DNA of 64,000 nucleotides. Source: Escherichia coli (GTDB taxonomy: Bacteria; Pseudomonadota; Gammaproteobacteria; Enterobacterales; Enterobacteriaceae). Shown here piece after piece: positions 50,959-50,991 of this stretch. The stretch lies in NCBI RefSeq assembly GCF_050920415.1, contig NZ_CP169309.1; one strand, written 5' to 3'. The stretch's first letter is position 1, and every line of letters starts with the position of its first letter. The notes under the pieces are model-generated. The model saw only the letters and a list, made by a program, of their open reading frames with translations. It made no database searches and was not told the origin of the DNA. The position numbers and the translations under genes were made by a program.

Positions 50959-50991
50959 TTTGTAAACCGTCCGGCACTCAATCGCCAAAAA

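Follow-up and report, generated by a model that had tools for sequence, protein, structure and literature searches.

The glucose-phosphate stress locus of Escherichia coli K-12 reads, in order, sgrR, sgrS/sgrT, setA (1,179 bp), and leuD. The setA gene appears in the synteny figure of Horler & Vanderpool (2009; PMC2760817), who also reported SgrS to be 88% identical between K-12 and CFT073/O157 (PMC2760817), and it is listed as acquired in the A/B1 sublineage by González-Alba et al. (2019; PMC6896753). SetA aids recovery under some stress conditions and does not export alpha-methylglucoside (2014 review, PMC4021124).

Here we describe this locus in a 64-kb stretch of E. coli DNA (64,000 nucleotides; hereafter the window) in which leuD and sgrS are separated by 33 bp. 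The setA-less junction is a common natural polymorphism that has already been described, and within the genus it is K-12 that shows the derived or alternative state at the sgrS locus. We consider it probable that the 33-bp interval is the native leuD-sgrS junction of a setA-less haplotype, setA having been lost on the Escherichia stem and a K-12 form having re-entered A/B1.

Organization of the locus

The locus includes the following features.

46084–46233, plus strand: Leu leader (Rfam), heading leuLABCD
50353–50958, plus strand: leuD (ORF list), 201 aa, the end of leuLABCD, with a TAG stop at 50956–50958
50959–50991: leuD-sgrS spacer, 33 bp between convergent genes, free of ORFs and of any setA remnant
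50992–51218, minus strand: SgrS small RNA (Rfam RF00534), 227 nt, a non-K-12 allele
50999–51021, minus strand: SgrS intrinsic terminator hairpin, 8-bp stem with 6 G-C pairs (terminator scan, fold)
51032–51053, minus strand: SgrS base-pairing core ATGTGTGACTGAGTATTGGTGT, 22 nt, the same as in K-12 (pattern match, alignments)
51066–51197, minus strand: sgrT, 43 codons, ATG at 51195–51197 (translation)
51286–52941, plus strand: sgrR, divergent from sgrS and encoding the sgrS activator

A TPP riboswitch and then thiB lie downstream of sgrR. The window is collinear with K-12 from 129,800 to 64,399 apart from the setA difference, and its LeuD and SgrR proteins are 98.5% and 97.5% identical, respectively, to those of K-12 at the amino acid level. 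A minor break in collinearity occurs in the araA-araD intergenic region (window 61741–61835), where the two blast segments share ~95 bp of window sequence and ~75 bp of K-12 (66,658–66,734) is unmatched.

A sequence-only reading had proposed that setA is absent between leuD and sgrS, and this holds: only 33 bp are found there, and a tblastn search with K-12 SetA over the whole 64-kb window, spacer included, returned nothing significant (best E = 0.13). The leuD stop at 50958, the SgrS 3' end at about 50992, and the ORF-free 33-bp gap on which it relied are confirmed. The K-12 order that it gave was also correct, since setA does lie between sgrS/sgrT and leuD in K-12. As it had stated, the small RNA, SgrT, and SgrR are present while the efflux pump gene is missing.

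The window is 100% identical to the complete-genome record NZ_CP169399.1, in which leuD and sgrR are likewise annotated. An assembly or sequencing artefact that collapsed the region has practically no probability, and is ruled out by this identical complete genome and by the thousands of independent assemblies with the same structure.

A segment replacement relative to K-12

Alignment with K-12 reveals a segment swap in which 135 bp of the window (50953–51087) stand in place of 1,356 bp of K-12 (77,498–78,853) that contain setA, a net difference of 1,221 bp; the blastn breakpoints fall at 50952 and 50993. The difference of roughly 1.2 kb expected from the sequence is therefore borne out, but its description as a clean presence/absence is not, as the SgrS 3' end, the SgrT tail, and the last two leuD codons differ as well.

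SgrS is 227 nt long in both the window and K-12 and is 86.8% identical overall, but identity falls from 97.7% in the first 131 nt to 71.9% in the final 96; the 22-nt core is unchanged inside this otherwise divergent 3' part. SgrT differs in its C-terminal seven residues, the tail being …EELMQWEGSHSDY in the window versus …EGLMQWDDRNSES in K-12, and leuD ends in …ATG CGT TAG versus …ATG AAT TAA. The window and K-12 forms are alternative haplotypes and do not differ by a clean indel. The flanking synteny had been called K-12-like on both sides, which the 64-kb collinearity bears out.

These comparisons bear on whether setA was deleted recently, in this strain, from a K-12-like ancestor. The otherwise K-12-like synteny and the net ~1.22 kb would fit such an event, but with 71.9% identity at the SgrS 3' end the flanks are not those of K-12. 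The distribution of the junction, described below, also weighs against it.

SgrS, SgrT, and the terminator

The window SgrS matches RF00534 with 228.9 bits (E 4.7e-65) over the full model (1–232), exceeding the gathering score of 37 bits. Its assignment to the family also agrees with its surroundings and parts: sgrR is encoded on the other strand, the core is kept, a terminator and U-tract are present, and SgrT is encoded with an intact ATG start. The terminator hairpin is followed by UUUUUUCUUUUU at 50987–50998, i.e., U6CU5. RefSeq assigns the SgrT protein the accession WP_001248768.1 in NZ_CP169399.1, CFT073, IAI39, and O157 LSU61. In O157:H7 LSU61, RefSeq annotates sgrT with this identical protein accession even though the start codon is ATT and not ATG; the ATT agrees with the O157 start-codon mutation of Horler & Vanderpool (PMC2760817).

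The terminator scan found no plus-strand terminator after leuD. By folding, the only hairpin 3' of leuD is that of SgrS, and no T-run lies beyond it in the plus direction. An outer 8-bp inverted repeat, AATCGCCA / TGGCGATT (window 50980–50987 and 51023–51030), flanks the SgrS terminator hairpin and lengthens the predicted stem in read-through transcripts from either strand. This repeat is missing in the aligned Citrobacter and Salmonella sequences.

Distribution within E. coli

We searched 5,426 complete E. coli genomes with a 1.1-kb query across the sgrS-leuD junction, scored as one unbroken match; phylogroup assignments come from named reference strains and the literature. The junction is unbroken in 2,159 genomes (~40%), O157:H7 LSU61 and IAI39 being examples of such a junction, and in the other matching genomes the query is split into two places. 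The arrangement had been described as that of this strain, but it is no feature of this strain in particular, as these 2,159 genomes and further Escherichia species have it too. This spread also argues against a recent strain-specific deletion, an explanation we find scarcely credible and which the spread, together with the divergent SgrS 3' flank, rules out.

DNA of K-12 setA is present in 3,241 of the 5,426 genomes, at >=99% identity in 3,228 of them. As the two counts (2,159 + 3,241) add up to approximately the 5,399 genomes matching at all, setA does not appear to occur elsewhere in setA-less genomes; by the same counts, and thus indirectly, no setA was found elsewhere in the genome of the window. 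Annotated loci without setA include those of O157:H7 LSU61, IAI39, CFT073, and NZ_CP169399.1, and those with setA include K-12 and B-strain derivatives, O104:H4 C227-11, O26, and O111.

The related genes setB and setC are found in 5,413 and 4,281 of the 5,426 genomes, respectively, with >=80% of the query covered in 3,721 of the latter. A chimeric leuBC+setB+setC query matches NZ_CP169399.1 in three places, a value that counts places and tells neither which of the pieces matched nor how complete setC is. This result is consistent with the window genome keeping setB and setC DNA at other sites. We also observed that setC is variable in E. coli, with alleles 90–95% identical in 381 genomes; in K-12 it adjoins selC (8954–10138 of the extracted locus).

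The leu operon allele

The region from leuA to leuD (46300–50958) and on to ~54000 carries a leu allele that is unusual for E. coli. It is at least 99% identical in only 3 of 5,399 genomes and 98.8–98.9% identical in 15 more among the matches listed, the next best being 96.3%; a 1.4-kb leuB-leuC piece is apparently <95% identical in ~3,494 genomes. The region is about equidistant (95–96%) from K-12, O157, CFT073, and IAI39 and is 92–94% identical to other Escherichia species. This pattern suggests that the allele may belong to a deep-branching and rare lineage of E. coli or to an old imported segment.

Distribution in other Escherichia and Enterobacteriaceae

A scan of species-representative genomes for the SgrS core yielded 47 stretches, among which E. 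fergusonii, E. marmotae, E. ruysiae, and the main E. coli/Salmonella representatives do not figure. Four non-coli lineages have the setA-less junction: E. albertii, E. whittamii, Escherichia sp. E1V33, and strain SCPM-O-B-8794. In alignment, these four share the spacer and SgrS 3' allele of the window and differ by point substitutions and a 2-bp spacer indel. Aligned with O157 and these lineages, the window belongs to a genus-wide setA-less Escherichia haplotype. Because the junction sequence is shared across Escherichia, we regard its copies as identical by descent and the junction itself as old in Escherichia; it therefore was not made by a deletion in this strain.

Outside Escherichia, setA directly follows sgrS in every sampled locus with enough downstream sequence. 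The setA-bearing outgroups are Citrobacter, Salmonella arizonae and diarizonae, Klebsiella, Raoultella, Enterobacter, Pluralibacter, Siccibacter, and Superficieibacter. The presence of setA in all other sampled Enterobacteriaceae implies that the gene is probably ancestral in the family. Two variants of the SgrS terminator occur in these outgroups, a K-12-like one, AAAATCACCC, in Salmonella, Enterobacter, and Pluralibacter, and a window-like one, TTAATCGCC, in Citrobacter.

Among the Escherichia sampled, the sole non-coli carrier of setA is Escherichia sp. MOD1-EC7003. Its locus is a mosaic in which setA and sgrS are 98–100% identical to K-12 and sgrR/thiB ~93%, which indicates that the setA haplotype moves between lineages by homologous recombination, and has done so recently. 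The boundary within its locus piece is sharp (positions 1–600 vs 600–3100).

Origin of the setA-less junction

K-12 setA is 72–80% identical to outgroup setA at the DNA level, in parallel with sgrR (72–81%), and 77–79% identical to the setA of Citrobacter/Salmonella. It forms a lone long branch, longer than those of Citrobacter/Salmonella setA, and is nested in no sampled genus. Its GC content is 48.5% (GC3 51.4%), compared to 51.5% (60.4%) for leuD and 54.9% (62.5%) for sgrR; setA, at 4708–5886 of the extracted K-12 locus, thus lies below its neighbours in GC. A search with the K-12 SetA protein returned E. coli entries only, at 99–100% identity bar one at 94%. No donor was found for K-12 setA, the sampled genomes containing no close relative of it outside E. 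coli.

We propose that the junction arose by loss of setA on the Escherichia stem. In a second step, a 1.36-kb K-12-type form, comprising the sgrS 3' third, setA, and the final two codons of leuD, would have entered A/B1-type E. coli by homologous replacement from a donor. The polarity of these events, loss and then re-gain in A/B1, is what the distribution of the two forms would imply.

It is also possible, though in our judgment unlikely, that setA was never lost from Escherichia and was instead kept, vertically or as a trans-species polymorphism, beside a deletion allele, with A/B1 having retained it. K-12 setA is about as distant from Citrobacter/Salmonella as sgrR is (72–80% vs 72–81%), a divergence of roughly Escherichia depth, so that vertical retention in one line is possible; its failure to nest in any sampled genus and the occurrence of both terminator variants among the outgroups point the same way. 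However, the four non-coli Escherichia lineages as well as O157:H7 LSU61, CFT073, and IAI39 lack setA, and those free of an insertion sequence share one junction. Such long retention also sits poorly with the >=99% identity of setA in 3,228 of 3,241 carriers, with the recent transfer by which the only non-coli carrier acquired the gene, and with the published reconstruction, which calls setA a gain (PMC6896753). Loss on the stem followed by re-entry of the K-12 form therefore remains our preferred explanation.

Function and regulation

In the window, sgrR and sgrT, the control region between sgrR and sgrS, the SgrS core, and a strong terminator for SgrS are all intact. Judging from this gene content, the glucose-phosphate stress response would lack the SetA pump, which depends on SgrR. 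Transcription past the SgrS terminator would yield an RNA antisense to leuD rather than setA mRNA and, as the genes are convergent, read-through in either direction would probably give antisense RNA.

A more elaborate scenario, which we regard as very doubtful, is that the setA+ and setA- forms are two co-adapted, long-lived alleles of a 3' module that takes in the end of SgrS, the C-terminus of SgrT, the terminator, and setA or its absence. Selection would maintain both alleles in Escherichia, and species would exchange them, with the non-K-12 SgrT/SgrS variant compensating for the pump. If this were correct, the shared convergent terminator would couple leu read-through to SgrS via antisense transcription.

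The K-12 form of the glucose-phosphate stress locus is not a reference state. SetA is missing from about 40% of sequenced E. coli, among them the pathogens O157:H7 and CFT073; these strains have SgrR, SgrS, and SgrT, but their SgrS 3' end and SgrT tail are not those of K-12. Findings made in K-12 on SetA, or on transcription that runs past the SgrS terminator, are not transferable to setA-less strains.

Comparison with known loci

The window and the K-12 locus share sgrR and the promoter region between it and sgrS, the 131 nt at the SgrS 5' end, the core, and synteny over 64 kb. It differs in that K-12 has setA, another SgrS 3' third and terminator, and another SgrT C-terminus. LeuD ends in …MN* in K-12 and in …MR* in the window, and K-12 contains a separate leuD/setA hairpin, GCCCGGTCAAATGACCGGGC, that the window lacks.

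The loci of O157:H7, CFT073, and IAI39 resemble the window in their setA-less gene order, SgrT (WP_001248768.1), and SgrS 3' allele. The spacer was compared with that of LSU61 alone among these and is the same but for three substitutions; the 1.1-kb junction region of LSU61 is 97.4% identical to that of the window, and its sgrT starts with ATT where the window has ATG. In CFT073, a copy of IS200C that the window lacks is inserted at the setA-less junction, its transposase gene lying between sgrS/sgrT and leuD (6078–6536 of the extracted CFT073 locus). In O157 and IAI39, sgrR is separated from the thiB riboswitch by espY2, which the window lacks. This gene, which encodes a T3SS effector, is found at 5873–6442 of the LSU61 locus piece and 1289–1858 of the IAI39 piece, corresponding to window 52942–52974, and is also missing in K-12 and CFT073. 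The leu operon of the window is 95–96% identical to those of O157, CFT073, and IAI39.

In Citrobacter, Salmonella, Klebsiella, Enterobacter, and their relatives, setA is located immediately 3' of sgrS, whereas the window has none. As in the window, these genera have sgrR divergent from sgrS and a conserved SgrS core. The Citrobacter sgrS-setA spacer, moreover, resembles the first ~20 nt of the window past the terminator.
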